A stretch of 39,670 bases of DNA from a virus, in the UHGV virus genome UHGV-0120812. One strand, 5' to 3'. Shown here one piece after another: positions 2,003-34,317 of the stretch. Below the pieces are notes generated by a model that saw nothing but the letters and a program-made list of their open reading frames with translations, searched no databases and had not been told where the DNA came from. The stretch's first letter is position 1; each line of letters opens with the position of its first letter. The translations under genes were made by a program, and so were the position numbers.

Positions 2003-2174
2003 CGCTTTGCTCTCCTGCGTTTCTTTGCTGCTCGTCGTGCCGCTGCAATACCAGTATGGCGGCGCTTTGGTGCCGGGATGATGTTGTCAGCCATCAGGAC
2101 ATGTGGCTTTGCAATTAGCGCAGAAGCCCAAAAACGAGTCGGGTACGGTAACAAGCCGATACATGCCACACGCA

Positions 2175-2729
2175 CTACTCACCTCCGTTGATGCGAATGC
2201 CTGTTGCAATGCTGTTTATGATGCTGTCAGTGCATGGGGTAGAAAGCTGGGCATCTCCAGCAATTTTCATGACATCAACATCTGCATATCGAATACCGAG
2301 GTGTATCAGACCGGCTATACCTGACTTAAGCCGAGCATTTTCCATAAACAGATCCTTTGCCCGCTGTTTTTCTGCCTCAAGCTCAACGCGCAGCTTCCCT
2401 ACCGTTAGCGCAATATCCTCGTTCTCCTGGTCGCGGGATTTGATGTATTGCTGGTTTCTTTCCCGTTCATCCAGCAGTGCCAGCACGGTAGCCGGATTGG
2501 CTGCAGCGATGAATTCAGCATTGGCCTGCTGTTCCATTTGGAAATCTTCATCGAAACCGCTTTCAGGATGCGCTCCTTCAATTCTGCAAATAGGAATATA
2601 TCCAGCAACTTCACGATGAATTAGCGCATCATCACCATCAAATCGGCTTTCTCCATATTCGAGCGACCACTCACCACACGTTGCTTTTTCTGCCGCTTCA
2701 CGCAGTGCCTGATAGTTAATTTTGGTCAT
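2175..2729 (-). CDS. Ead/Ea22-like early protein
   Basis: 184 aa MTKINYQALREAAEKAT...; N-terminal pattern and coiled-coil middle typical of Ead/Ea22-like proteins in lambdoid early-left operons (from memory). Confidence 0.6.
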   Translation of the reverse strand: MTKINYQALREAAEKATCGEWSLEYGESRFDGDDALIHREVAGYIPICRIEGAHPESGFDEDFQMEQQANAEFIAAANPATVLALLDERERNQQYIKSRDQENEDIALTVGKLRVELEAEKQRAKDLFMENARLKSGIAGLIHLGIRYADVDVMKIAGDAQLSTPCTDSIINSIATGIRINGGE

Positions 2730-2730
2730 A

Positions 2731-3030
2731 TCACATCACCCTGAAGCCGTTGCATTTACGTAAGAAATCGCAGATATAGCCCTTCATTTTTTCATGCCAA
2801 TCTCGATCATTCCCATTGCACCAACCATCAGGTGGAGTCCAGTTTTCTATCAGAGCAGCCATTTTCTTTGCTTTCGCCGGAGTAGCTGTTGCGGTATCGC
2901 AGTAATGACGAGTTTCAACCAACGCATCCATACCATCGATATCAAGTACGCAAAACCATGTGTGATTCGGCATTCCAACAGATGGTATTTGTTGCCCACG
3001 TCGACGTTTATCAATAAGACATACAGTCAT
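2731..3030 (-). CDS. Hypothetical protein
   Basis: 99 aa ORF, tightly packed in the leftward operon (2-nt gap to upstream gene). Confidence 0.55.
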   Translation of the reverse strand: MTVCLIDKRRRGQQIPSVGMPNHTWFCVLDIDGMDALVETRHYCDTATATPAKAKKMAALIENWTPPDGWCNGNDRDWHEKMKGYICDFLRKCNGFRVM

Positions 3031-3572
3031 GGTTCCACCTTCTCTATTTGCTTAAGACCGTCTCTCACTGCATTAAGTACGCGTTCCAGATACTGGTATT
3101 TCGGGTTTGGTGCCGTTGGCCAGTCGGCATACCATGGATCATCACCAAAGAGATTCAGCAGTTTGTTACCGACGCCGAAACAACAGCAGCTTTCTTTTAC
3201 GTCATCGGCGTTTTCCGCCTCGTCCCACATTTCGCGAGCCTGTACCGCGTCGATTTCTCTCTCTCTTCGTAATTTTATGATTTCTGACTTCACGAAAAGC
3301 AGATTTGCATCGTTGTCATCGTCGACCGTGCTTCGCAGTTGAGGGTCGAAATAGCCGATTAGATACTCGTTGCTGACCCGCTTAATGAACGTCTGCACAT
3401 CATCACCGCCCATAGCAAACCAAGCCGCAGTCCACGCTTTTCCGTAGCAGGTGATGGTGATTCTTCCCTTACCAGGTTCGTAGTTTTCAATCATCACTCG
3501 AACCGGATCTAGTCGCTCTGCACCGGTTATAACGAATGACAACACATCAATCTTTTCAACCGTTACACTCAC
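3027..3572 (-). CDS. Hypothetical protein
   Basis: 181 aa ORF starting with GTG that overlaps the stop of the upstream small ORF (GTGA). Confidence 0.6.
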
Positions 3573-3736
3573 TGGTTGCCTCCTTTGCGCAACATCGCAT
3601 TCAGATATTTGTTGTCGTTAACAGAACCGAAACTCTTTCTTTTAAGCAATTCCTCTCTCGATGGCATTGGCTTTACGCGTTGGCGAATAATCATTTCTGC
3701 CGGAAGAATGCCGGGATTGTATGCAAGTCCTCTCAT
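3569..3736 (-). CDS. Hypothetical small protein (55 aa, below the ORF-track cutoff)
   Basis: Hand translation: [55 protein letters not shown]; stop overlaps downstream GTG start. Confidence 0.35.
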
Positions 3737-3752
3737 GATTAATTCCTCTTTG

Positions 3753-4067
3753 TTAATTTATTTGTATGCCTGCTCTTTCTTCATCGAGTTTTTTTAGCTT
3801 GTATCGCATAGCCCTTACTGAATAAATTGAGCGGCAGGTTGCAATTGCTATTTCTTCTGCGGAGAACTTACCGAAAAGTGATACTTCGGCTCTTGTCCAG
3901 CGTCTTCCACGAAGTCGGCTAACAATGTCAGCGCCAATCCTTGTTGCTTTCGCCATAACTGCTTTTTCAGTCCTTTCCAGTTTTTCAGCGATAACTTCAA
4001 CTGGCATTGTCGCCGCCACTTCGCGCAAGAAATCGACTTCCCATTTCTCCCATGGAGTCTTTTTCAT
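3753..4067 (-). CDS. Hypothetical protein, possible duplicated helix-turn-helix
   Basis: 104 aa; two similar segments ([13 protein letters not shown]... and [20 protein letters not shown]...) suggesting a DNA-binding fold. Confidence 0.55.
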
Positions 4068-4078
4068 AGGCGATACCG

Positions 4079-4567
4079 TTATTTGATAAGAAGTGAAGGT
4101 TTCCCAACTTTGAGTTGAGCGCCGGGGATATTTATTCCTGCTTTTAGTTGGTGTTTGATTGCCAGTTTGTCGGCTTTAATTGTCGTTTCAAACTCAACGT
4201 ATTCAGGAGGAAGGGCGCTTGAGTCGATGATTTCTACAGTTTCTGACGGTTTGCGGATTGTTACCTGGTGAATACCTGCTCGAATCTTTTTCTTGCCAAC
4301 CATTTCAAGCGATGACGCTATATACGCCATAATGCTGTCAATCTTGTTTTGAATTACTGCGGCTCGCTCATTTAGTGACTTTGCCTCTTCCTTGAGGCGT
4401 TCAGCATAACCAGATTCATTTTTAATAATGGCAAGAAGTTGCTCTATTTTATCGGTAAATTCTCCTTCCATGCCTTCTATTGTGTCAGCAATCATCTCTG
4501 GTTCTAAATCTGAATCCATCAATTTTGCGTATTCATTGGCAATTTCATACAGTTTGCTCACTGGCAA
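4079..4567 (-). CDS. Gp157-like protein (tentative)
   Basis: 162 aa, acidic/coiled-coil, immediately downstream of the RecT-like gene, where siphovirus Gp157-family genes are commonly found. Confidence 0.5.
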   Translation of the reverse strand: MPVSKLYEIANEYAKLMDSDLEPEMIADTIEGMEGEFTDKIEQLLAIIKNESGYAERLKEEAKSLNERAAVIQNKIDSIMAYIASSLEMVGKKKIRAGIHQVTIRKPSETVEIIDSSALPPEYVEFETTIKADKLAIKHQLKAGINIPGAQLKVGKPSLLIK

Positions 4568-5447
4568 CCTCCAGTTTCGCTTTGCATTCTATGTAAATGG
4601 CTTGTACGTTCTGCTGCAATTTCATTCCAGATGTCAGGCGATATGCTTCTGCAAAATATCGCTTCAAATCGTCCATGTTTTCTGCCTGAGCCATTTCATC
4701 GCAAAGAAGTTGTGCTTTATCCATTATTTCCTGCTGGCGTTTCCGTTCATCTTCGCGGATATCTTCCTCTGATTTGTGCGGCATAACTGGTTCCTGATGC
4801 ATACCTTCATCTTCGTTAAGAAGGTGAATGGCATTATCCAGTCTCTGGGCTTTAGGCCAGTATTTGCTGGCGCGTTTAACTATTGTTTTACGCGCCATCT
4901 CTTCCCAGAATGTTTTCCACGGTCCATTCTTTGCCTTGCTCGTTGCTTCCACAGCTTTAATTTCTGCCAGACTCATTTCTTCAGTCAGGTAGTCACCATC
5001 TGCTGTTTTAACCGTGCAATAACCTCCAACAATAGAGCCTCGCTCACCAAATGCGTTGTATTTGTGGGTTGGTGCTGAATCAAGGCCATTTGATTCATAG
5101 GTGTCGTTTGAGTACACCAGTTTGCATTGCCCCCACTTAATTGATCCTGTCGATTGCGCAAGATGAAGTAATCCCATGTAACTGATATCAAGGCACACCA
5201 TGCCGTCGCGAGGAACCAGATAAGCCAGTTTGCTGGCCGGGTTTAAGGTGATGCCGATCGCCGCAACATTGATGATGGCGTTCTGTGCGCTGGTTGGATT
5301 TGCCAGTGCTGTTTTAGCCAGGTAATCGTTTTTCTGGAAATACTGAATTGCAAACTGGCTTTCCTTAGCCCATGTCACCGTCTGTTCAGTCAATGCTCCG
5401 CAGAATAACTGCTCCTGCTGTTTAACGAATTCAACGATATTGCTCAT
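4545..5447 (-). CDS. recT: RecT-family single-strand annealing protein
   Basis: 300 aa; GPWKTFWEEMARKTIVKRASKYWP resembles the RecT motif GPWVTHWEEMAKKTAIRRLFKYLP. Confidence 0.8.
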   Translation of the reverse strand: MSNIVEFVKQQEQLFCGALTEQTVTWAKESQFAIQYFQKNDYLAKTALANPTSAQNAIINVAAIGITLNPASKLAYLVPRDGMVCLDISYMGLLHLAQSTGSIKWGQCKLVYSNDTYESNGLDSAPTHKYNAFGERGSIVGGYCTVKTADGDYLTEEMSLAEIKAVEATSKAKNGPWKTFWEEMARKTIVKRASKYWPKAQRLDNAIHLLNEDEGMHQEPVMPHKSEEDIREDERKRQQEIMDKAQLLCDEMAQAENMDDLKRYFAEAYRLTSGMKLQQNVQAIYIECKAKLEVASEQTV

Positions 5448-5755
5448 GCAGCTTCTCCAAAAATGTGTCTGCGTTTGAATATTGCGAAGGCATATTCAGC
5501 CTTAACTCTTTCGGTTATTGCATCCCAGAACCATTCAGCGGCTTTTTCCTGATAGTTACAGTCATCATCTTCCAGCCAGTCGATAGCGTCCTTAGTGTGT
5601 TCATCTGGTTTATATGAGCGAAGCATTTCGCTTATTGGGTCGCAACGTTTGCAGAGGCGATCAACTTCACTGTTGATTCGTTCGTAATCTTCATCAGTAA
5701 AACTTGCGATTATTTGCGATATTTCACGCTTATCATTCAGAGTCAGAATCATCAT
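5444..5755 (-). CDS. Hypothetical acidic protein upstream of RecT
   Basis: 103 aa ORF overlapping the RecT start by 4 nt; occupies the position where lambdoid phages carry Gam/Kil/Abc-type genes, but no similarity recognised. Confidence 0.55.
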   Translation of the reverse strand: MMILTLNDKREISQIIASFTDEDYERINSEVDRLCKRCDPISEMLRSYKPDEHTKDAIDWLEDDDCNYQEKAAEWFWDAITERVKAEYAFAIFKRRHIFGEAA

Positions 5756-5836
5756 CTTTCTCCTGTTCTTTGTGCTGATTGAGCATTTTGTTCATCTGAC
5801 GAATGAATTCTTCGTCTGACCAGTTATCTGTAAAAC

Positions 5837-6007
5837 TCATGGACGGCCTTGTTGTTTCAAAATATCCCAAAGCTTTTCGAGCAAACTTTTCATTCTTGGT
5901 TGTTTAAAGTCTGCTCCGGTTAAAATATTTTTTCGTGAATGCTGTACCGATAAAATCGGGTTGAAAGGGCGAACCGATGCCGCCCCTGCAATAGCGAACT
6001 GTTGCAT
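5837..6007 (-). CDS. cIII: CIII-like protein (FtsH inhibitor)
   Basis: 56 aa from internal ATG with AAGGAG RBS 7 nt upstream: MQQFAIAG...MKSLLEKLWDILKQQGRP, resembling lambda CIII (MQYAIAG...LLERITRKLRDGWKRLIDILNQPG). Confidence 0.6.
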   Translation of the reverse strand: MQQFAIAGAASVRPFNPILSVQHSRKNILTGADFKQPRMKSLLEKLWDILKQQGRP

Positions 6008-6190
6008 AGGATGCTCCTTCTGTTTGATTGCATAACGAAAACGCCTCGAGTGAAGCGTTATTGGTATGCATATAAAAAGGCCCTCACACTGGAGGGCAAA
6101 GAAGATTTCCAATAATCAGAACAAGTCGGCTCCTGTTTAGTTACGAGCGACATTGCTCACATAGCAGACTCGTAAATCTGCTATAGGCGC

Positions 6191-6349
6191 TTATTCGCAT
6201 CGCATGACAACATCAAATTTTTCGAGATTACTTTGTCGCAACAATCCTTCTTCTACGCGGTCAGCTTTTCTATAATTATCAAATTCGAAATGTTTAATTA
6301 CTTCTTTTGTTCCTCGCTCTATAACTTCAACAATGTATTTCTTATTCAT
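6191..6349 (-). CDS. Hypothetical small protein (52 aa, below the ORF-track cutoff)
   Basis: Hand translation MNKKYIVEVIERGTKEVIKHFEFDNYRKADRVEEGLLRQSNLEKFDVVMRCE; ATG overlaps the stop of the upstream gene (ATGA); AT-rich. Confidence 0.4.
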   Translation of the reverse strand: MNKKYIVEVIERGTKEVIKHFEFDNYRKADRVEEGLLRQSNLEKFDVVMRCE

Positions 6350-6645
6350 CATTCTTCCCCAAGAGCTTTTCTGATTGCTGCAAGACCTTTATTAACAGCT
6401 CCATACCATTCTGGATATGTTGTCGTTGTTCTATTTTTGGTTTGCTTAAGTAATAACTGAAGTGCTTCGAGAAGGTCAGGTGCTGCCGCTATTAGATTGG
6501 CATCTTCAATGCATTGAACTTCCTCACAGATTGCAATATACGAACGCCAGCCTGTGCCATTTTCAAGTGAGTCTGCCTGGATGATTTTAATCTCATCGCC
6601 ATCCATCATTATTTCCCACTTACCTTCAGTACCTTTAAATTCCAT
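6349..6645 (-). CDS. Hypothetical protein
   Basis: 98 aa ORF in the AT-rich block between N and cIII-like. Confidence 0.55.
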   Translation of the reverse strand: MEFKGTEGKWEIMMDGDEIKIIQADSLENGTGWRSYIAICEEVQCIEDANLIAAAPDLLEALQLLLKQTKNRTTTTYPEWYGAVNKGLAAIRKALGEE

Positions 6646-6682
6646 GTTAGCCTCTGTTGTTTATGCCAAAAATAAAGGCCGA

Positions 6683-7306
6683 CTATGCGGCCTCGGAAGG
6701 AAGTCCAATCATCTTATTCAAATCTTCTACCCGTAAAGCAGGAAGTGCTGTACTTGCTTTATCTGCTTCTTTTGGTAGCAACTCTTTGCTTTCAGGCCAA
6801 ACCTCAATAAGTCGCTTAACTGTTGTGACTGAGTTTAAAGCAGCCCATACATTTGATTCGATATCCTTTTTCTTTGCTTCAAGTTTTTGTTGTAATGAGC
6901 AGATTTCATCAAACCTTTTTGTTATTTCGTGCTCTGCGTCAAACATGCATTTATCTTTTGTCGGAGTAGGGAGCAATATATCTTCGCCGTTGCCGTCTTT
7001 CCCATATGAATGCCAGCCAACCCTTCTTCCAGATACAGTCAGATAAATCGAAGTAGAACGAACATCGCATGAGTAAAATGAACATCCCATCTTCTCAAGT
7101 TCTTCACTTATAGCTGCTAACTTGGATGATAACCGATCCACTTCCTCAGTTTTCTTTTTACCGCCAAACGCAATAACTCTGGCGTCAAGTGCAAGCTGGT
7201 TCTTTAACTTTGTTACTTCTTCAAGCTCAGTGAAAACCCCAGACTTAATTAAAGCGTTACGAGCGATTTCCTCTTTCATTCTCGTAGTTAAGCGGATTGA
7301 TGACAT
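6683..7306 (-). CDS. Hypothetical protein (207 aa)
   Basis: Start chosen at MSSIRLTTRMKEEI... (GAGG RBS about 8 nt upstream) rather than the ORF-track start at 7321; coiled-coil-rich; AT-rich. Confidence 0.55.
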   Translation of the reverse strand: MSSIRLTTRMKEEIARNALIKSGVFTELEEVTKLKNQLALDARVIAFGGKKKTEEVDRLSSKLAAISEELEKMGCSFYSCDVRSTSIYLTVSGRRVGWHSYGKDGNGEDILLPTPTKDKCMFDAEHEITKRFDEICSLQQKLEAKKKDIESNVWAALNSVTTVKRLIEVWPESKELLPKEADKASTALPALRVEDLNKMIGLPSEAA

Positions 7307-7342
7307 ATTAATTCCTCTCAAATAAGAAAATAAAGGCCACCA

Positions 7343-7594
7343 TCAGGCAGCCTTGTTGTAAATGTTGCAGGTATCAAGTAAGTAATTAGATGGAGCGCCA
7401 TAAATTATGAATTCATCGTTTGTCGGGTCCATCTCCATCTCTTGGCCTATTGCCATTCTTGCGTCAGTGTCATCAGAGGCGAAGCATAAAACAGCCCACG
7501 CACCCATTGTTTTAAAAAGAACTGCAATTGGCTGTGGTTTTACTGAATTTGCGTTAGCGCGAAAATCATAAATCGCACTTTCATGAAACTCCAT
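7343..7594 (-). CDS. Hypothetical protein
   Basis: 83 aa ORF immediately downstream of N in the leftward operon. Confidence 0.55.
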   Translation of the reverse strand: MEFHESAIYDFRANANSVKPQPIAVLFKTMGAWAVLCFASDDTDARMAIGQEMEMDPTNDEFIIYGAPSNYLLDTCNIYNKAA

Positions 7595-7602
7595 ATCTCA
7601 CC

Positions 7603-7929
7603 TCAAATAAGTGGTTTGCTGCCTAATTTCATTTTCTGGCGACCAACACAAGTCACACCCATTTCACTACGTGGCTTGCTGTACCATGTGCGCTGATTCT
7701 TGCGCTCAATACGTTGCAGGTTGCTTTCAATCTGTTCGTGGTATTCAGCCAGCACCGTAAGGTCTATCGGATTCAGTGCGCTTTCTACTCGTGATTTCGG
7801 TTTGCGATTCAGCGAGAGAATAGGGCGGTTAACTGGTTTTGCGCTTACCCCAACCAACAGGGGATTTGCTGCTTTCCATTGAGCCTGTTTCTCTGCGCGA
7901 CGTTCGCGGCGGCGTGTTTGTGCATCCAT
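7603..7929 (-). CDS. N: Antitermination protein N
   Basis: MDAQTRRRERRAEKQAQWKAANPLLVGVSAKPVNRPILSLNRKPKSRVESALNPIDLTVLAEYH... matches lambda N (arginine-rich motif), with a divergent C-terminus. Confidence 0.92.
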   Translation of the reverse strand: MDAQTRRRERRAEKQAQWKAANPLLVGVSAKPVNRPILSLNRKPKSRVESALNPIDLTVLAEYHEQIESNLQRIERKNQRTWYSKPRSEMGVTCVGRQKMKLGSKPLI

Positions 7930-8125
7930 CTGGATTCTCCTGTCAGTTAGCTTTGGTGATTGGATGGCCGGCGCTGAACCCCGGCTTACTGGTTAGAGCG
8001 CCCGCACTACCAGTGACGCTGTCTTGAGGCGCAGATTGGTTACTGCTTGCCATGAGCGCTGTTTATACATTGGTCGAGCATCAGCCTGCTCATTCATCCA
8101 ATCCCAAAGCCTTCTGCTTTGAATG

Positions 8126-8158
8126 CTGCCCTTCTTCAGGGCTTAATTTTTAAGAGCC
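8126..8158 (-). promoter_or_regulatory. nutL (boxA plus boxB hairpin)
   Basis: Minus-strand reading gives GCTCTTAAAAATTAA followed by GCCCTGAAGAAGGGC, the lambda nutL boxA/boxB arrangement. Confidence 0.8.
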
Positions 8159-8197
8159 TCACCTTCATGGTGGTCAGTGCGTCCTGCTGATGTGCTT

Positions 8198-8260
8198 AGT
8201 ATCACCGCCAGTGGTATTTATGTCAACACCGCCAGAGATAATTTATCACCGCAGATGGTT
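8198..8260 (-). promoter_or_regulatory. pL promoter with oL1-oL2-oL3 operators
   Basis: 17-mers TATCACCGCCAGTGGTA, CAACACCGCCAGAGATA, TATCACCGCAGATGGTT; minus-strand -35 TTGACA and -10 GATACT. Confidence 0.85.
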
Positions 8261-8418
8261 ATCTGTATGTTTTTTATATAGATTTATTTTTTGCAGGGTT
8301 GTGTGGATTGAAGGTGATCGAGAGATCTGAATTGCGATGTTTAGTGAGTTGTATCTATTAATTTTGAAATAAATACAATTGGTTATGCGTTTTTTGGGGG
8401 GGGGCGTTAGGCAAAGAA

Positions 8419-8452: not shown

Positions 8453-8638
8453 TTACAGAGCAAAGAGATCATGCATTAGGTTGCTGTTCATCTGGTGGTT
8501 GAATTGATACGGCTCCAATTCCTTCTTGATCTCGTTCAGGTGTTGTTCCGCTTTTTTTGCCAGATCGTGACCTTCTTGGATCTGGCTTTCCAACATCTTG
8601 TTGAGAATTTCCATCTCCGGTTGCAGATTCTTCGGCAT
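8453..8638 (-). CDS. Hypothetical small helical protein, overlapping the 3' end of the peptidase-like ORF in another frame
   Basis: 61 aa from internal ATG (AGGA RBS about 8 nt upstream): MPKNLQPEMEILNKMLESQIQEGHDLAKKAEQHLNEIKKELEPYQFNHQMNSNLMHDLFAL; composition more protein-like than the overlapping frame. Confidence 0.4.
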   Translation of the reverse strand: MPKNLQPEMEILNKMLESQIQEGHDLAKKAEQHLNEIKKELEPYQFNHQMNSNLMHDLFAL

Positions 8639-9470
8639 TAGCTTTTTCCTCTTTTTGTAGATACGTTGTACAATCAATAACCCTCGGCTTTCCAAATGTT
8701 GGAATGTCACCATTATGAATTTTGTCACAGAAAAGATTATAGAGTATTTCTGTTATACCTTTAGGATGCTCAACACACTTGAAAAGTTCCTTGGCTTCTT
8801 TTCTGTCGATAACAAATCCATGTGAAGGATATGAGGCTATTAGTTTGCCTAACGCCCCTTCTTTTAGGCTGCTTGGTTTGTCTGCTAATCGTTGGCCATA
8901 AGTGATAGCTATACTCATTGCGCGCTGATGTTCACCAAGCTTTATTGGATCTATCTGTGCGGCCATAGGTGCTATCAACGCTTCTGTAAGTCTGGTCGCG
9001 ATATCAGCAGACATTTTGGTACTTATCTGATTTTCGTATCTTATCTTAACAAGGTGTGAGTTAAACGCTGAAATAGAGCGTTCCTTTAGAGCATCAAGAG
9101 CTGTCATGATAGCTAAACCAGAACTCATCTCACCTATTTCATCGTTTTTTTTCAGTTGGATATCTAATGGCCCAAGCTCCCCCATGTCACCAATAACAAG
9201 TTTATTGGCTGCTATAGCTATTAGTGTACCAGCACTTTTGCATGGTCCAACAACTAAAAGTGTTACCGTTTCATAATGGTGCTGTAGAGCTCTACCTATA
9301 CGATAACCTGCATTTGGATCACCGCCATAAGTAGCAACACAGAAGATAACATTCTCTTTTAATCCATGTTGTGACTTACGTTTCTTGATTTCATTGGTGA
9401 GATCAAGATAACCATCACGATGAATATCGCCTGTATACACATAAACATCATGATTTTCAATAGAATTCAT
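8469..9470 (-). CDS. Clp-fold (ClpP/SppA/SDH-like) serine peptidase-like protein in the rexAB position; 3' end uncertain
   Basis: 333 aa ORF co-oriented with cI, 115 nt downstream of it; motifs VIFCVATYGGDPNAGYRIGRAL and VVGPCKSAGTLIAIAANKLVIGDMGELGPLD resemble the Clp-protease fold; last ~55 residues are low-complexity. Confidence 0.65.
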   Translation of the reverse strand: MNSIENHDVYVYTGDIHRDGYLDLTNEIKKRKSQHGLKENVIFCVATYGGDPNAGYRIGRALQHHYETVTLLVVGPCKSAGTLIAIAANKLVIGDMGELGPLDIQLKKNDEIGEMSSGLAIMTALDALKERSISAFNSHLVKIRYENQISTKMSADIATRLTEALIAPMAAQIDPIKLGEHQRAMSIAITYGQRLADKPSSLKEGALGKLIASYPSHGFVIDRKEAKELFKCVEHPKGITEILYNLFCDKIHNGDIPTFGKPRVIDCTTYLQKEEKANAEESATGDGNSQQDVGKPDPRRSRSGKKSGTTPERDQEGIGAVSIQPPDEQQPNA

Positions 9471-13916: not shown

Positions 13917-14363
13917 ATGAAGCAAATATACATGCTTCGCAACGAAGCAATCAGAAACAACGCCATAGACGCAATACTCTCACTTCCGATCGACGACAAG
14001 TCACCTCACGAAGTCCACATTAAAGAACCAAAGCGGAGCAATCCTCAAAACCGCCTTATGTGGGCGTTATTGCAGGACGTATCACGTCAGGTGCTTTGGC
14101 ATGGACAGAGACTTGCGCCGGAGGACTGGAAAGACCTGTTCACTGCCCTGTGGCTTAAGACCAAAAAACTGGAGCAACGAAGTGTGCCTGGTATCGATGG
14201 TGGCGTTGTCATGCTTGGCGTGCGTACCAGCAAAATGCGAAAGGCCAGCATGACTGAGCTTATCGAAATCATGTTTTGGTTCGGCTCAGAGCGCAACGTG
14301 CGGTGGAGTGATGACTCCCGGCGAGAGTATGAATGGTCACAACGAAAAGGTAGGGCTGCATGA
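13917..14363 (+). CDS. ninB: NinB (Orf-family recombination mediator)
   Basis: 148 aa; NPQNRLMWALLQDVSRQVLWHGQRL and C-terminal WSDDSRREYEW align with lambda NinB; GAGGTG RBS 5 nt upstream of ATG. Confidence 0.82.
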   Translation: MKQIYMLRNEAIRNNAIDAILSLPIDDKSPHEVHIKEPKRSNPQNRLMWALLQDVSRQVLWHGQRLAPEDWKDLFTALWLKTKKLEQRSVPGIDGGVVMLGVRTSKMRKASMTELIEIMFWFGSERNVRWSDDSRREYEWSQRKGRAA

Positions 14364-14887
14364 CTATCAAATCAAATACGCCAGCACACGACAAGGACTG
14401 CTGGCAAACGCCGCTTTGGCTTTTTGATGCACTGGATATTGAGTTTGGATTCTGGCTGGATTCGGCAGCGAGCGACAAAAATGCTCTGTGTGCTCACTGG
14501 CTAACTGAGGCCGACGACGCGCTCAATTCTGAGTGGGTAAGCCACGGTGCAATCTGGAATAACCCACCGTACAGCAATATCAGGCCGTGGGTGGAAAAAG
14601 CCGCTGAGCAGTGCATACAACAGCGACAGACGGTAGTTATGCTTGTGCCAGAGGATATGTCAGTCGGATGGTTCAGCAAGGCTCTGGAGAGCGTTGACGA
14701 AGTTCGCATCATCACTGATGGACGGATTAATTTTATCGAACCATCGACGGGGCTGGAGAAGAAGGGAAACAGCAAAGGTTCCATGCTGCTGATTTGGCGA
14801 CCGTTCATCAGTCCTCGACGGATGTTTACTACCGTATCCAAATCGGCATTGATGGCGATCGGACAGGGCGCCAGGAGGGCGGCATGA
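14360..14887 (+). CDS. DNA N6-adenine methyltransferase (phage Dam-type, orphan)
   Basis: 175 aa with NPPYS motif (motif IV of N6-adenine MTases); no adjacent restriction endonuclease gene. Confidence 0.78.
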
Positions 14888-32473: not shown

Positions 32474-34317
32474 TGAAAGTAACTGCAAACGGTAAGACAT
32501 TTACCTTTCCTGATGGTACGAGCACCGAAGATATTGGCACCGCCATTGATGAGTATTTTGCTGGTCAGGCTGTTCAGCAACAAACAGTTAATCAGGCCAA
32601 TAATGCACCAACACGGGAAGAACCATCATTGATGCAACAAGCTGGCGATTGGCTCACTGGTGGTCAAAGTGCAGGGCAAATTGCGGAACAGGCTGGTCGT
32701 GGTCTGGTAAACATACCATTTGACGTATTGCAGGGCGGCGCAAGTCTGATTAATGCAATCAGCCAGGGGCTTGGTGGCCCCAAGGTTTTGGACGATGTCT
32801 ATCGTCCAGTCGATCGACCAACAGACCCTTATGCGCAAGCTGGAGAAACAATTGGCGGGTATTTAGTTCCAGGAGTTGGAACGGCAGGAAGCATGGCTAT
32901 TGGATCACTGGCAGAGGCCGCAAATCAGAAAGGCGATTTCGCACAAAATGCAGCTAAAAATGCCGGAGTTAACCTTGCCGCTCAGGGGGTTCTTTCCGCA
33001 GCAGCAAAGGGAATATGGCGTGGAATAACGGCTATAAAAGGTGATATTGCGCCAGAAGTGGCGAAGAAAATTGCCACATCAGAATCGATGGGCGTGACAC
33101 CAATGACATCTGATGTTATCCCGCCGAAAAATGCTTTCACTCGCGGCCTAACTCAGGATGCCGAGGGGGCTTTGCTCGGGACAGGCTCAAAGCGAGCGGA
33201 GCAATATGCAACGCGTAGTAAGCTGGTAAGTAATTATTTTGACCGTTTTGGTGAGTACAACCCTGATGATGTGGTGAAATCTCTTACCACCACGTTAAGG
33301 GGGCGGAAGGATGCCGCTGGCGCTGTTATCAATGACGTCACCAATAAAATGGGTAATGCCGCAGTTGATACCACAAATACCATGAATGCTCTGAATACAG
33401 CGATCGCAAGACAGGAACGGCTTGGGACGTCTGCCAATCAAAGCCTGCTTACATCCTTGCGTAACCTACGTGAAGAATTAGCAAACCCTGCAACTGATTT
33501 GGATGTTACGTTTGATCTCTTGCGTCAGCACAGAACAGCATTTAGATCTAATGTTCAGGGAGATGCTATGGTCTTCCCAAACCAGGCAAAAGCAGCTACC
33601 AATATGGTAGAGAATGCAATGTCAAAAGATCTTCGTAACGCAGTTGCAAAAAACCTCGGTGCATCAGACGCAGCAAAATACCTTAAAGCAAATTCCGATT
33701 ATGCAAACGTTTATAATAAGGTGCTTAATAAAAACATTGCTAACAAGCTCAACAAGGCAAGCAGTGAAGCCAGTCCTGAACTTATAAATACCGTTGTATT
33801 AAGCAGAAAACCATCTGACGTGAAACGAATCTGGAGCGCATTGGATAATAAAGGGAAAGATGCTATGCGTGCAGCTTATGTCAGCAAAATAGCGGAAAAG
33901 GCCGGTGACTCTCCAGCCAAGTTCATCACTGAAGTTAATAAGCTGAAATCTCAGTCAGGCGGTGAAATTTACAACACTATTTTTTCTGGAAAGCACATGA
34001 AAGAGCTTGATTCTCTTCATGAAGTTCTACAGCAAACAGCAAGGTCAGACACCGCAAATGTAGTAACTCAGACGGGGCAATCGCAAGCCAACAGGATAAG
34101 GACGATTGGCGCAACTGCGACTCTTGGCGTATCAATGGGGCTTGAGGCTGGTTTCGGTGCAATGATGCGCTTGTATGAGTCAAAAGCAGCAAGGAATGCT
34201 CTCTTACGTTTGGCAAACACCAAAGCAGGAACACCAGCCTATGAAAGAGCGCTAAATAATGCTGCAAATGCGATACGCCCTATACTTTCAAGCCAAATTA
34301 CAGCAGAACAGCAATAA
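32470..34317 (+). CDS. Ejection protein (P22 gp16-like)
   Basis: 615 aa ORF at the gp16 position and of similar length. Confidence 0.8.

Follow-up and report, generated by a model that had tools for sequence, protein, structure and literature searches.

The interval between the genes N and cIII is among the most variable parts of lambdoid genomes. Here, we describe this interval in the virus genome UHGV-0120812, of which the whole stretch of 39,670 nucleotides (nt) that was analyzed is referred to as the window. The interval harbors four open reading frames (ORFs) of 83, 207, 98 and 52 amino acids (aa), all on the minus strand, as well as two copies of a short conserved sequence, here called the joint (J and J'). 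Comparison with related genomes makes it highly probable that the interval is composed of three independently exchangeable cassettes, i.e., orf83, the Nmad5 gene orf207, and the Y8K6-like gene orf98 with a coupled small ORF. These cassettes fill the ral-to-ea10 slot of the pL operon in a P22-like prophage with the immunity region of lambda. In the direction of transcription, the features of the interval are:

7343-7594, minus strand: orf83, an 83-aa protein of the VT2-Sakai orf20 family with an isoelectric point (pI) of 4.2 (phrog_2471, E 3e-60)
7320-7354, minus strand: joint J, a 9-bp hairpin whose loop contains the orf83 stop codon, then a T-run; core GGCCTTTATTTT at 7327-7338 (terminator scan)
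6683-7306, minus strand: orf207, a stand-alone Nmad5 protein of 207 aa from the ATG, or 212 aa from an upstream TTG (Pfam PF18757)
6660-6694, minus strand: joint J', a 7-bp hairpin with the orf207 stop codon in its loop, then a T-run; core GGCCTTTATTTT at 6669-6680 (terminator scan)
6349-6645, minus strand: orf98, a probable member of the Phage_P22_Y8K6 family, for which PGAP also uses the name XkdD/Y8K6 (phrog_1273, E 2e-32; homologues carry PF27050)
6191-6352, minus strand: orf52/53, a small protein, its start and the orf98 stop codon overlapping in ATGA (phrog_6949, E 6e-40)

The sizes and places of the four ORFs are those given in an initial annotation, which had been made from the sequence alone. 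Each ORF is preceded by a Shine-Dalgarno-like sequence and is covered end to end by a PHROG family (E 2e-32 to 9e-84), all of these families being labeled "unknown function". Because diverged homologues keep conserved cores, orf83, orf207 and orf98 are real genes. The case is weakest for orf52/53, which has the PHROG family and seven phage records in its favor, and for which PGAP makes no call in an identical E. coli genome. The initial annotation had described the ORFs as unrecognized, which does not apply to orf207 (PF18757, Nmad5) or orf98 (homologues with PF27050, Phage_P22_Y8K6), and had given the block of four ORFs as 6113-7594, of which 6113-6190 is an untranslated structured spacer. 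Of the ORFs described as tightly packed and translationally coupled, only orf98 and orf52 overlap; orf83 starts 8 nt after the N stop codon, and orf207 is uncoupled because it is flanked by spacers of 36 and 37 nt with terminator-like hairpins. Instead of one coupled unit, the four ORFs thus make up three separately exchangeable cassettes.

Cassette organization

Breakpoints were determined by local blastn against eight annotated relatives, i.e., lambda, P22, BTP1, mEp235, mEp043, Sakai, Kapi1 and APC_JM3.2. The breakpoints are sharp: the Nmad5 cassette (6653-7326) is common to mEp235 and Kapi1, the segment with orf98 and orf52 (6074-6692) is common to mEp043, and orf83 together with the end of N (7327-7655) is common to VT2-Sakai. 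The cassette borders fall on the conserved joint, and related prophages differ freely in the genes that flank each cassette on its two sides. A locus search with the Nmad5 alignment, which returned near-identical lambdoid loci only, yielded 80 lambdoid prophage loci in IMG/VR. In each of these loci, Nmad5 falls within a stretch bounded by cIII on one side and by an N-type gene, Nun or Ral on the other; more than 55 distinct neighbor arrangements were counted.

Some part of the block is present in 2,234 of 5,426 complete E. coli genomes (~40%), Stx-converting prophages included, and at least 80% of the block in only three of them. Among phages, all four genes are found together elsewhere only in APC_JM3.2, and the E. 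coli strain WWCOL-236 (NZ_CP178552), the probable source, matches window positions 6100-7600 at 100% identity. Hence, the components are common in E. coli and only this four-gene combination is rare. In related prophages the same interval is occupied by Ral, Nun, many other small genes and members of the gp17 family of P22, whose gp17 is annotated as enabling growth on a Fels-2 lysogen. The interval is a typical rather than an exceptional accessory region, and its genes are members of known but uncharacterized families, none of the four having a demonstrated function. According to the phage L genome paper, most early-left genes are without a known function. For each cassette there is a tractable laboratory phage that holds it, namely mEp234 for orf83, mEp235 for Nmad5 and mEp043 for orf98 with orf52.

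The shared joint

The hairpins that follow orf83 (7354-7333) and orf207 (6694-6675) are two versions of the ~45-nt CAAGGCTGCCTGATGGTGGCCTTTATTTTTGGCATAAACAACAGA, which, as seen in alignments, also ends lambda ral, BTP1 ral and Sakai orf20. The copy that follows orf83 folds with -13.9 kcal/mol (z -4.2), and the annotation of mEp234 labels it a rho-independent terminator. The window contains exactly two exact copies of the 12-nt core GGCCTTTATTTT, both on the minus strand and bracketing the Nmad5 cassette. The core is found exactly 3 nt past the Nmad5 stop codon in 52 of 72 related loci, and on the opposite strand in none. An exact-match scan of viral contigs identified the joint in at least 120 further stretches. 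Among the matches listed, the ORFs that end inside the joint hairpin belong to at least eight unrelated families (Ral 46, Nmad5 13, an acidic 107-aa protein 8, orf83 8, and others), and several of these families share an in-frame K-A-A-stop encoded by the joint. The 107-aa protein, which is strongly acidic and unstudied, ends ...VDKAA in the joint. The shared joint offers an easy way of collecting candidate early accessory genes, namely by taking every gene that ends in it. In a literature search that was not exhaustive, no description of the joint, nor of the hypervariable tip of the Y8K6-family protein considered below, was found; the shared in-frame terminator joint and this tip are the most interesting by-products of the analysis.

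Morons and mosaic joints in lambdoid phages were reportedly described by Juhala et al. in 2000. The interval studied here resembles these elements in having AT-rich accessory genes, terminator-like hairpins and short conserved border sequences, and in that RecT, Erf or Red is encoded. Unlike morons, the cassettes of the window, which do have terminator-like hairpins, are without promoters of their own. Because no dedicated promoter precedes any of them, they are not classical prophage-expressed morons. Another difference, from the mosaic joints of lambdoid phages, is that the joint reaches into the 3' end of coding sequences, where it is reused in frame by unrelated genes. The joints would probably act both as weak terminators and as patches of short homology at which the RecT, Erf or Red recombinases of phages would shuffle the cassettes. 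Recombination between diverged sequences or short homologies is promoted by Red (Martinsohn et al. 2008, PMC2327257).

The operon and the ral-to-ea10 slot

The four genes are part of an early-left operon with the following promoter and flanking features:

8198-8226, minus strand: pL-type promoter (TTGACA-17-GATACT) driving the operon (consensus scan, 10/12 matches)
7603-7929, minus strand: lambda-type antiterminator N, the upstream neighbor (Pfam N36, E 1.5e-26; 94% DNA identity to lambda N)
6008-6190, minus strand: structured untranslated spacer with hairpins at 6160-6185, 6080-6097 (then a T-run) and 6040-6059 (terminator scan)
5837-6007, minus strand: cIII homologue, the downstream boundary of the variable slot (phrog_550 "CIII", E 1e-22)

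The window as a whole is a complete P22-like prophage of the Lederbergvirus type, ~39.7 kb long and ending in an integrase gene on one side, and its nearest relatives are Kapi1, CUS-3 and APC_JM3.2. Lambda pL, nutL, N and cI are all present, the blastn identity between the lambda pL/nutL region and window positions 8103-8298 being 98%. Past the four ORFs, the gene order is the 183-nt structured untranslated spacer, cIII, kil, a 103-aa ORF and RecT. The spacer folds into three or four stable hairpins (z -3.0 and -3.6) and is homologous to the lambda ea10-ral intergenic region and the cIII leader: in blastn comparisons, positions 6070-6158 are 96.6% identical to lambda 33923-34011 (the ea10-ral intergenic region) and positions 5984-6069 are 79% identical to the 5' region of lambda cIII. 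The lambda terminator tL2a is presumably located in the equivalent of 6008-6190. A search of the whole window against Rfam, together with a permissive search of 5600-8300, gave no credible match.

The GC content of 6113-7594 is 0.401, as compared to 0.473 for the whole window, which places it at the 4.5th percentile of equal-sized windows. The AT content noted initially as being above that of the flanks is thus higher than in N (GC 0.495) and RecT (0.456), but not in comparison to the adjoining cIII, kil and 103-aa genes (0.41-0.42). The assignment of the block to the position of ral and ea10 was correct because, at the right end of the array, identity to lambda ea10-ral DNA amounts to 96.6%; in addition, the hairpin sequence that ends ral follows both orf83 and orf207.

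The arrangement shares its operon, strand and flanks with N-ral-ea10-cIII of lambda and 24-ral-orf78-orf87-17-c3 of P22/BTP1. In contrast to these, the window holds no homologue of ral, sieB, ea10 or gp17 in the interval; orf83 replaces ral in the N-proximal position, and two copies of the joint enclose an inserted Nmad5 cassette. The statement that the four ORFs show no similarity to lambda Ral, Ea10 or SieB is borne out by BLASTP, which finds none; more generally, BLASTP, hhalign and Pfam searches reveal no resemblance of any of the four to Ral, Ea10 and SieB of lambda or to Ral, gp17 and SieB of P22. For lambda and P22 Ral, there is no BLASTP match at E up to 10. There is likewise no match at E up to 0.1 to PF17420 (GP17), against which P22 gp17 itself scores 196 bits.

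orf83 in place of ral

The orf83 protein is 97.6% identical to Sakai orf20 and mEp234 gp34. Its family is enterobacterial and narrow, with identities of 70% or more throughout its 16 clusters; across loci, four different N types directly precede it. It resembles lambda Ral, which alleviates type I restriction, in that it is found in the N-proximal position held by ral in BTP1, ends in the same joint, including the in-frame K-A-A-stop, and never occurs together with ral. The co-occurrence is 0 in 199 related loci (a rough hypergeometric estimate for zero co-occurrence is ~0.01, the sample being biased), compared to 12 loci for Nmad5 and ral. In contrast to Ral (66 aa), orf83 is acidic and consists of 83 aa, and the two are without detectable sequence similarity. 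The possibility that orf83 is a diverged Ral was rejected: hhalign of the orf83 profile against Ral gave a probability of 0.1%, and BLASTP and Pfam were also negative. We conclude that orf83 is a positional alternative to ral, not a homologue.

Expression

In a consensus scan, the stretches that lead from a joint to the following start codon contained no promoter-like site, and such sites are fewer in the region than in shuffled sequences (5 vs a mean of 6.5). The genes are therefore expected to be transcribed from pL and silent in the lysogen; all four would be transcribed only from this promoter, during infection or induction. Because orf83 is located upstream of the first terminator-like hairpin, it is expected to be co-expressed with N before antitermination, i.e., it would be an immediate-early gene that matches BTP1 ral in both its position and its 3' joint. 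Expression of Nmad5, orf98 and orf52 would require N-mediated read-through.

An alternative is that the ORFs are lysogenic-conversion or superinfection-exclusion genes that, like sieB and rex, are expressed from the prophage. Such a role would fit with the location of sieB in the same interval in lambda and P22, with the resemblance to morons in low GC content and cassette behavior, and with a weak promoter-like site inside orf83 (7431-7404). This site, however, has only 9/12 matches and is located upstream of the J hairpin, in a region with fewer promoter-like sites than shuffles. Furthermore, the four ORFs are encoded on the pL strand behind the repressor-controlled pL, whereas sieB is on the opposite strand with its own promoter, and none of the four ORFs matched any family of PADLOC-DB at E up to 0.1. 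Expression from the prophage is the least probable of the explanations considered here.

orf207 is an Nmad5 protein

The product of orf207 matches PF18757 over profile positions 1-206 of 206, with 239 bits vs a cut-off of 27 (E 7e-71). Its fold matches in BFVD are Nmad5 proteins, and its homologues are named "Nmad5 family putative nucleotide modification protein" by NCBI. With 2,284 clusters at 50% identity, this is a large family, whose members are almost always stand-alone proteins of ~200 aa. In the AlphaFold2 model (26-sequence alignment; predicted local distance difference test, pLDDT, 85.5), orf207 is a helical bundle composed of helices at residues 8-72 and 127-158, a beta-hairpin at 86-100 and short C-terminal helices; an enzyme fold is not seen. 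The tail, residues 184-207, is conserved and modeled with low confidence. The invariant residues are found in two clusters, 162-TVKRLIEVWPES-173 and 188-LPALxVxDLNxxIGLP-203, the first of which defines the motif TxK[KR]LIxxWPE. In the 26 sequences, T162, K164, R165, L166, W170, P171, E172, L196, N197, I200, G201 and P203 are invariant or nearly so, and these residues include no obvious catalytic set. With the Nmad5 proteins of M6, SN1, MW2 and Dhillonvirus, orf207 has in common the family profile, which it matches over its full length, and the motifs TxK[KR]LIxxWPE and LPALxVxxLNxxIGLP. The Dhillonvirus protein differs in being longer (254 aa or more) and in being encoded among head genes, on the opposite strand.

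The family name raises the question of a role in modification. As read singly from annotated phage records, distant Nmad5 genes are indeed associated with modification genes in MW2, Jack, N4-like phages and SPN3UB. According to one alternative, orf207 would take part in nucleotide or DNA modification, e.g., as a noncatalytic specificity or scaffold subunit, and the block would in part serve self-protection. The full-length Nmad5 match is in line with such a role, as are the homologues that M6/MW2-like phages hold in a thymidine-hypermodification cluster beside a dU hydroxymethylase, that N4-like phages hold beside ThyA or ThyX, and that SPN3UB holds two genes from a tRNA-guanine transglycosylase-like gene. 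Moreover, the window itself encodes a Dam-type DNA N6-adenine methyltransferase (14360-14887, plus strand; PF05869, E 6e-65) in the nin region. This enzyme is the sole DNA-modifying enzyme among the ORFs scanned, and its gene is ~7 kb from Nmad5 in another operon. A modification role is, however, difficult to reconcile with a family of almost exclusively stand-alone ~200-aa proteins and with the lack of an enzyme fold and of conserved catalytic residues in orf207. There is no modification gene within 7 kb of orf207, whose neighbors are N, orf83, orf98 and cIII, and none beside Nmad5 in the 80 lambdoid loci, where the neighbors are only N, Ral, Nun, cIII and kil; Kapi1 has an Nmad5 gene and no annotated methyltransferase. 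Unlike their counterparts in hypermodifying phages, the lambdoid copies stand alone in the pL operon, without aGPT-pyrophosphorylase, kinase, hydroxymethylase or DpdA neighbors. The label "nucleotide modification protein" is derived only from gene neighborhood and is a misfit for the lambdoid copies, and we consider a function in modification to be quite improbable. In the literature searched, no biochemical role for Nmad5 was found, the one experimental study in it being that discussed below (PMC11846954).

In the Salmonella lambdoid siphovirus SPN3UB (2049-4621), the Nmad5 homologue, which is 35% identical, is found in the pR/nin region two genes after a gene annotated as "queuine tRNA-ribosyltransferase" (DpdA-like, tgt-like). 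This is the only lambdoid context seen with a modification-associated Nmad5 neighborhood.

A second alternative is that the genes, above all Nmad5, are accessory factors of replication or recombination that aid the RecT/Erf/Red module or the replisome and are unrelated to immunity. In N4-like phages, Nmad5 is found between thymidylate synthase and a PD-(D/E)XK nuclease with primase, and in eiAU-183 it follows the helicase-primase. In the window, it shares an operon with RecT, kil and cIII, and the breadth of the family (as given above) is that expected of a general DNA-metabolism helper. On the other hand, the presence of Nmad5 in lambdoid phages is independent of the recombination module (Red/Gam, RecT, Erf or Rad52-like), many well-studied lambdoid phages, lambda and P22 included, lack the gene, and it behaves as a joint-bounded exchangeable cassette rather than as part of a conserved core. 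Such a helper function is unlikely, albeit not to the extent of being negligible.

orf98 and its small partner

The assignment of orf98 to PF27050 is read via its homologues: nearly all that are listed, including all full-length ones, carry a precomputed match, the exceptions being five fragments. A 98%-similar region in another genome carries the PGAP name "XkdD/Y8K6 family phage-associated protein"; a literature search on "XkdD" gave nothing useful. In a 27-sequence database, the C-terminal half of orf98 matches P22 orf78 with E 5e-5, where orf78 is taken to be the 8.6-kDa ORF behind the Y8K6 family name, and orf98 is 44% identical to BTP1 gp34. Also the position in the window, between N or ral and cIII, is that of the Y8K6 family. 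P22 gp17 has the same position and a similar size, but a relation of orf98 to this protein was rejected as BLASTP and hhalign were negative and PF17420 gave no match; for orf53, the only indication of a relation to gp17 was E 0.018 in the 27-sequence database, with no Pfam match, and it was not accepted.

In orf98, the N-terminal half and the C-terminus are conserved, the LIAAAPDLLEAL motif is invariant, and residues 63-88 form a hypervariable segment. Across the 22 homologues that share this N-terminal domain, the fraction of the majority residue is ~0.9 at residues 1-62 and 89-98 compared to 0.36 at residues 63-88, where insertions and deletions are also found. In the AlphaFold2 model, helices 44-70 and 77-94 are confidently predicted; they make up a helical hairpin with segment 63-88 at its tip.

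Behind every Y8K6-family gene examined there is a small ORF of 41-77 aa that overlaps or abuts it, and these small ORFs belong to at least five unrelated families. The coupled layout is seen in the window, mEp043, mEp213, P22 (orf78-orf87, where orf87 is a DUF551 protein) and six enterobacterial prophages; the window thus reproduces the orf78-orf87 layout of P22. In BTP1, the gene that follows gp34 is ~60 nt away and does not abut it. The orf52/53 gene occurs in only seven phage records, always directly behind a Y8K6-family gene, and the same pairing as in the window is found in mEp043, mEp213 and APC_JM3.2.

This arrangement brings to mind a cognate toxin-immunity or inhibitor-partner module in which the small protein would bind the hypervariable tip. 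The constant presence of the overlapping or abutting small ORF, also in P22, as well as the strong diversification of both the hairpin tip and the small ORF, are as expected for such a module. We asked whether the small ORF co-varies with the tip and found that it does not do so one to one: the orf53 family stands behind three different tip alleles (window, mEp213 and P0125), so strict cognate pairing is unsupported. Searches of Pfam, NCBIfam and PADLOC matched neither orf98 nor orf52 to a toxin or antitoxin family, and a repressed operon does not fit an addiction module. A cognate module is highly unlikely.

In the early-left region of mEp213 (1147-2904), two different N-type antiterminator genes are annotated on either side of a Y8K6-like gene and an orf53 homologue. 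This arrangement suggests that the N-proximal segment has been duplicated or is recombinant.

A possible role in early lytic growth

The explanation that we favor combines the cassette organization with expression from pL and with a function in which the products would be small binding proteins that act on host or competitor proteins in early lytic growth. Their likeliest purpose would be to counter host immunity or exclusion rather than to serve core replication. Nmad5 would act through the invariant TxK[KR]LIxxWPE motif together with the conserved, poorly modeled C-terminal tail, and orf98 through the hypervariable tip of its helical hairpin. A nonenzymatic mode of action would be in line with the lack of an obvious catalytic set among the invariant residues of orf207 and with its conserved tail, and an arms race with the diversified tip of orf98, the separate occurrence of orf83 and ral, and the presence of Ral and the P22 gp17 family in this slot in relatives. 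For this explanation as a whole, comprising organization, expression and function, we estimate a probability of about 0.45. The functional step, i.e., that the proteins are early-acting, nonenzymatic binders that counter host immunity or exclusion, is the weakest one; it is suggested by the position of the genes and is somewhat less likely than not.

The only experimental link to a defense system, an indirect one via a distant homologue, is with Tmn. Mutants of two Dhillonvirus phages that escape Tmn carry K216E or K296E in nmad5, and reversion of the nmad5 mutation restores Tmn sensitivity; nmad5 could not be cloned (PMC11846954). The C-terminal core residues of orf207 are also present in the homologue of Dhillonvirus BF9 (254 aa), in which residue 216 is the second K of DKKLIKAWPE and is aligned with R165 of orf207, in the most conserved motif of the family, a mapping that assumes the numbering of phage SMA8 to be the same as that of BF9. 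As inferred from this alignment, Tmn-escape substitutions would fall in the motif shared with orf207. The Nmad5 family is thus linked genetically to a defense system.

Besides the numbering assumption and the bias of the 199-locus sample mentioned above, a number of points weigh against the favored explanation. In the same study, deletion of nmad5 did not confer escape from Tmn, an ambiguous result (PMC11846954), and the Dhillonvirus homologue shares only the C-terminal half of orf207, at 33% identity. In the virulent phages Jack, KpCHEMY26, UTK0002 and MW2, Nmad5 is found in replication and nucleotide-metabolism modules, with thymidylate synthase or dU-hydroxymethylase, DNA polymerase and primase, and these neighborhoods point to a role in DNA metabolism rather than in counter-defense. 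The N-terminal half of orf98 is poorly modeled (pLDDT 43-60), and both the terminator activity of the joints and the recombination at them are read from the DNA sequence. Finally, no result shows anti-defense activity for any of the four proteins, which have no similarity to Ral, Ea10, SieB, P22 gp17 or any Protein Data Bank (PDB) entry, anti-restriction proteins included.

The initial annotation had proposed the ORFs as candidate anti-defense or host-takeover genes. The positional argument behind this proposal stands, but homology and structure searches gave no anti-defense match to support it. In particular, searches for anti-restriction or defense families and for solved structures were without a match for the four ORFs: NCBIfam gave none, and nothing significant was found in sequence and profile searches of the PDB, solved anti-restriction proteins being covered. 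As regards DNA mimics of the Ocr or ArdA type, there is no PDB sequence match for any of the ORFs, and orf83 (pI 4.2) and orf98 (pI 4.6), each with a net charge of about -7, are only moderately acidic. Literature searches on lambdoid anti-defense hotspots or on the joint returned nothing describing these genes. At the same time, homology assigned no housekeeping phage function to any of the four ORFs, a finding that would have spoken against the proposal had it been otherwise.

A more far-reaching reading, which we consider unlikely in its entirety, assigns specific roles to all parts. The joint would be a portable, orientation-fixed recombination joint at which early counter-defense cassettes are stacked behind N by RecT, Erf or Red; orf83 would be an immediate-early protein with a function analogous to that of Ral, Nmad5 a nonenzymatic protein that engages immune sensors such as Tmn, and the Y8K6 tip a specificity determinant shaped by an arms race. 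With the same low probability, and by analogy, the array of joints would correspond to a recombinase-light integron cassette array with built-in insulation that is suppressible by N. Should one of the four proteins turn out to block restriction, Tmn or a different defense, this would be of importance to the engineering of phages for therapy and to Stx phage biology.

Other features of the window

No tRNA genes were detected in the whole window; the close relative Kapi1 has tRNA-Asn and tRNA-Thr downstream of Q. Between cI and pL, the window holds an ORF of 333 aa (8469-9470, minus strand; GC 0.398) described as an "SDH family Clp-fold serine proteinase", which belongs to phrog_21683 (unknown function), has weak Pfam and NCBIfam matches and no PADLOC hits, and has a terminator-like hairpin (8440-8419) beside it. 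The ORF occupies the position of rexA/rexB in lambda and is thus probably co-transcribed with the repressor in the lysogen, which makes it a candidate for a prophage-expressed exclusion or abortive-infection gene.

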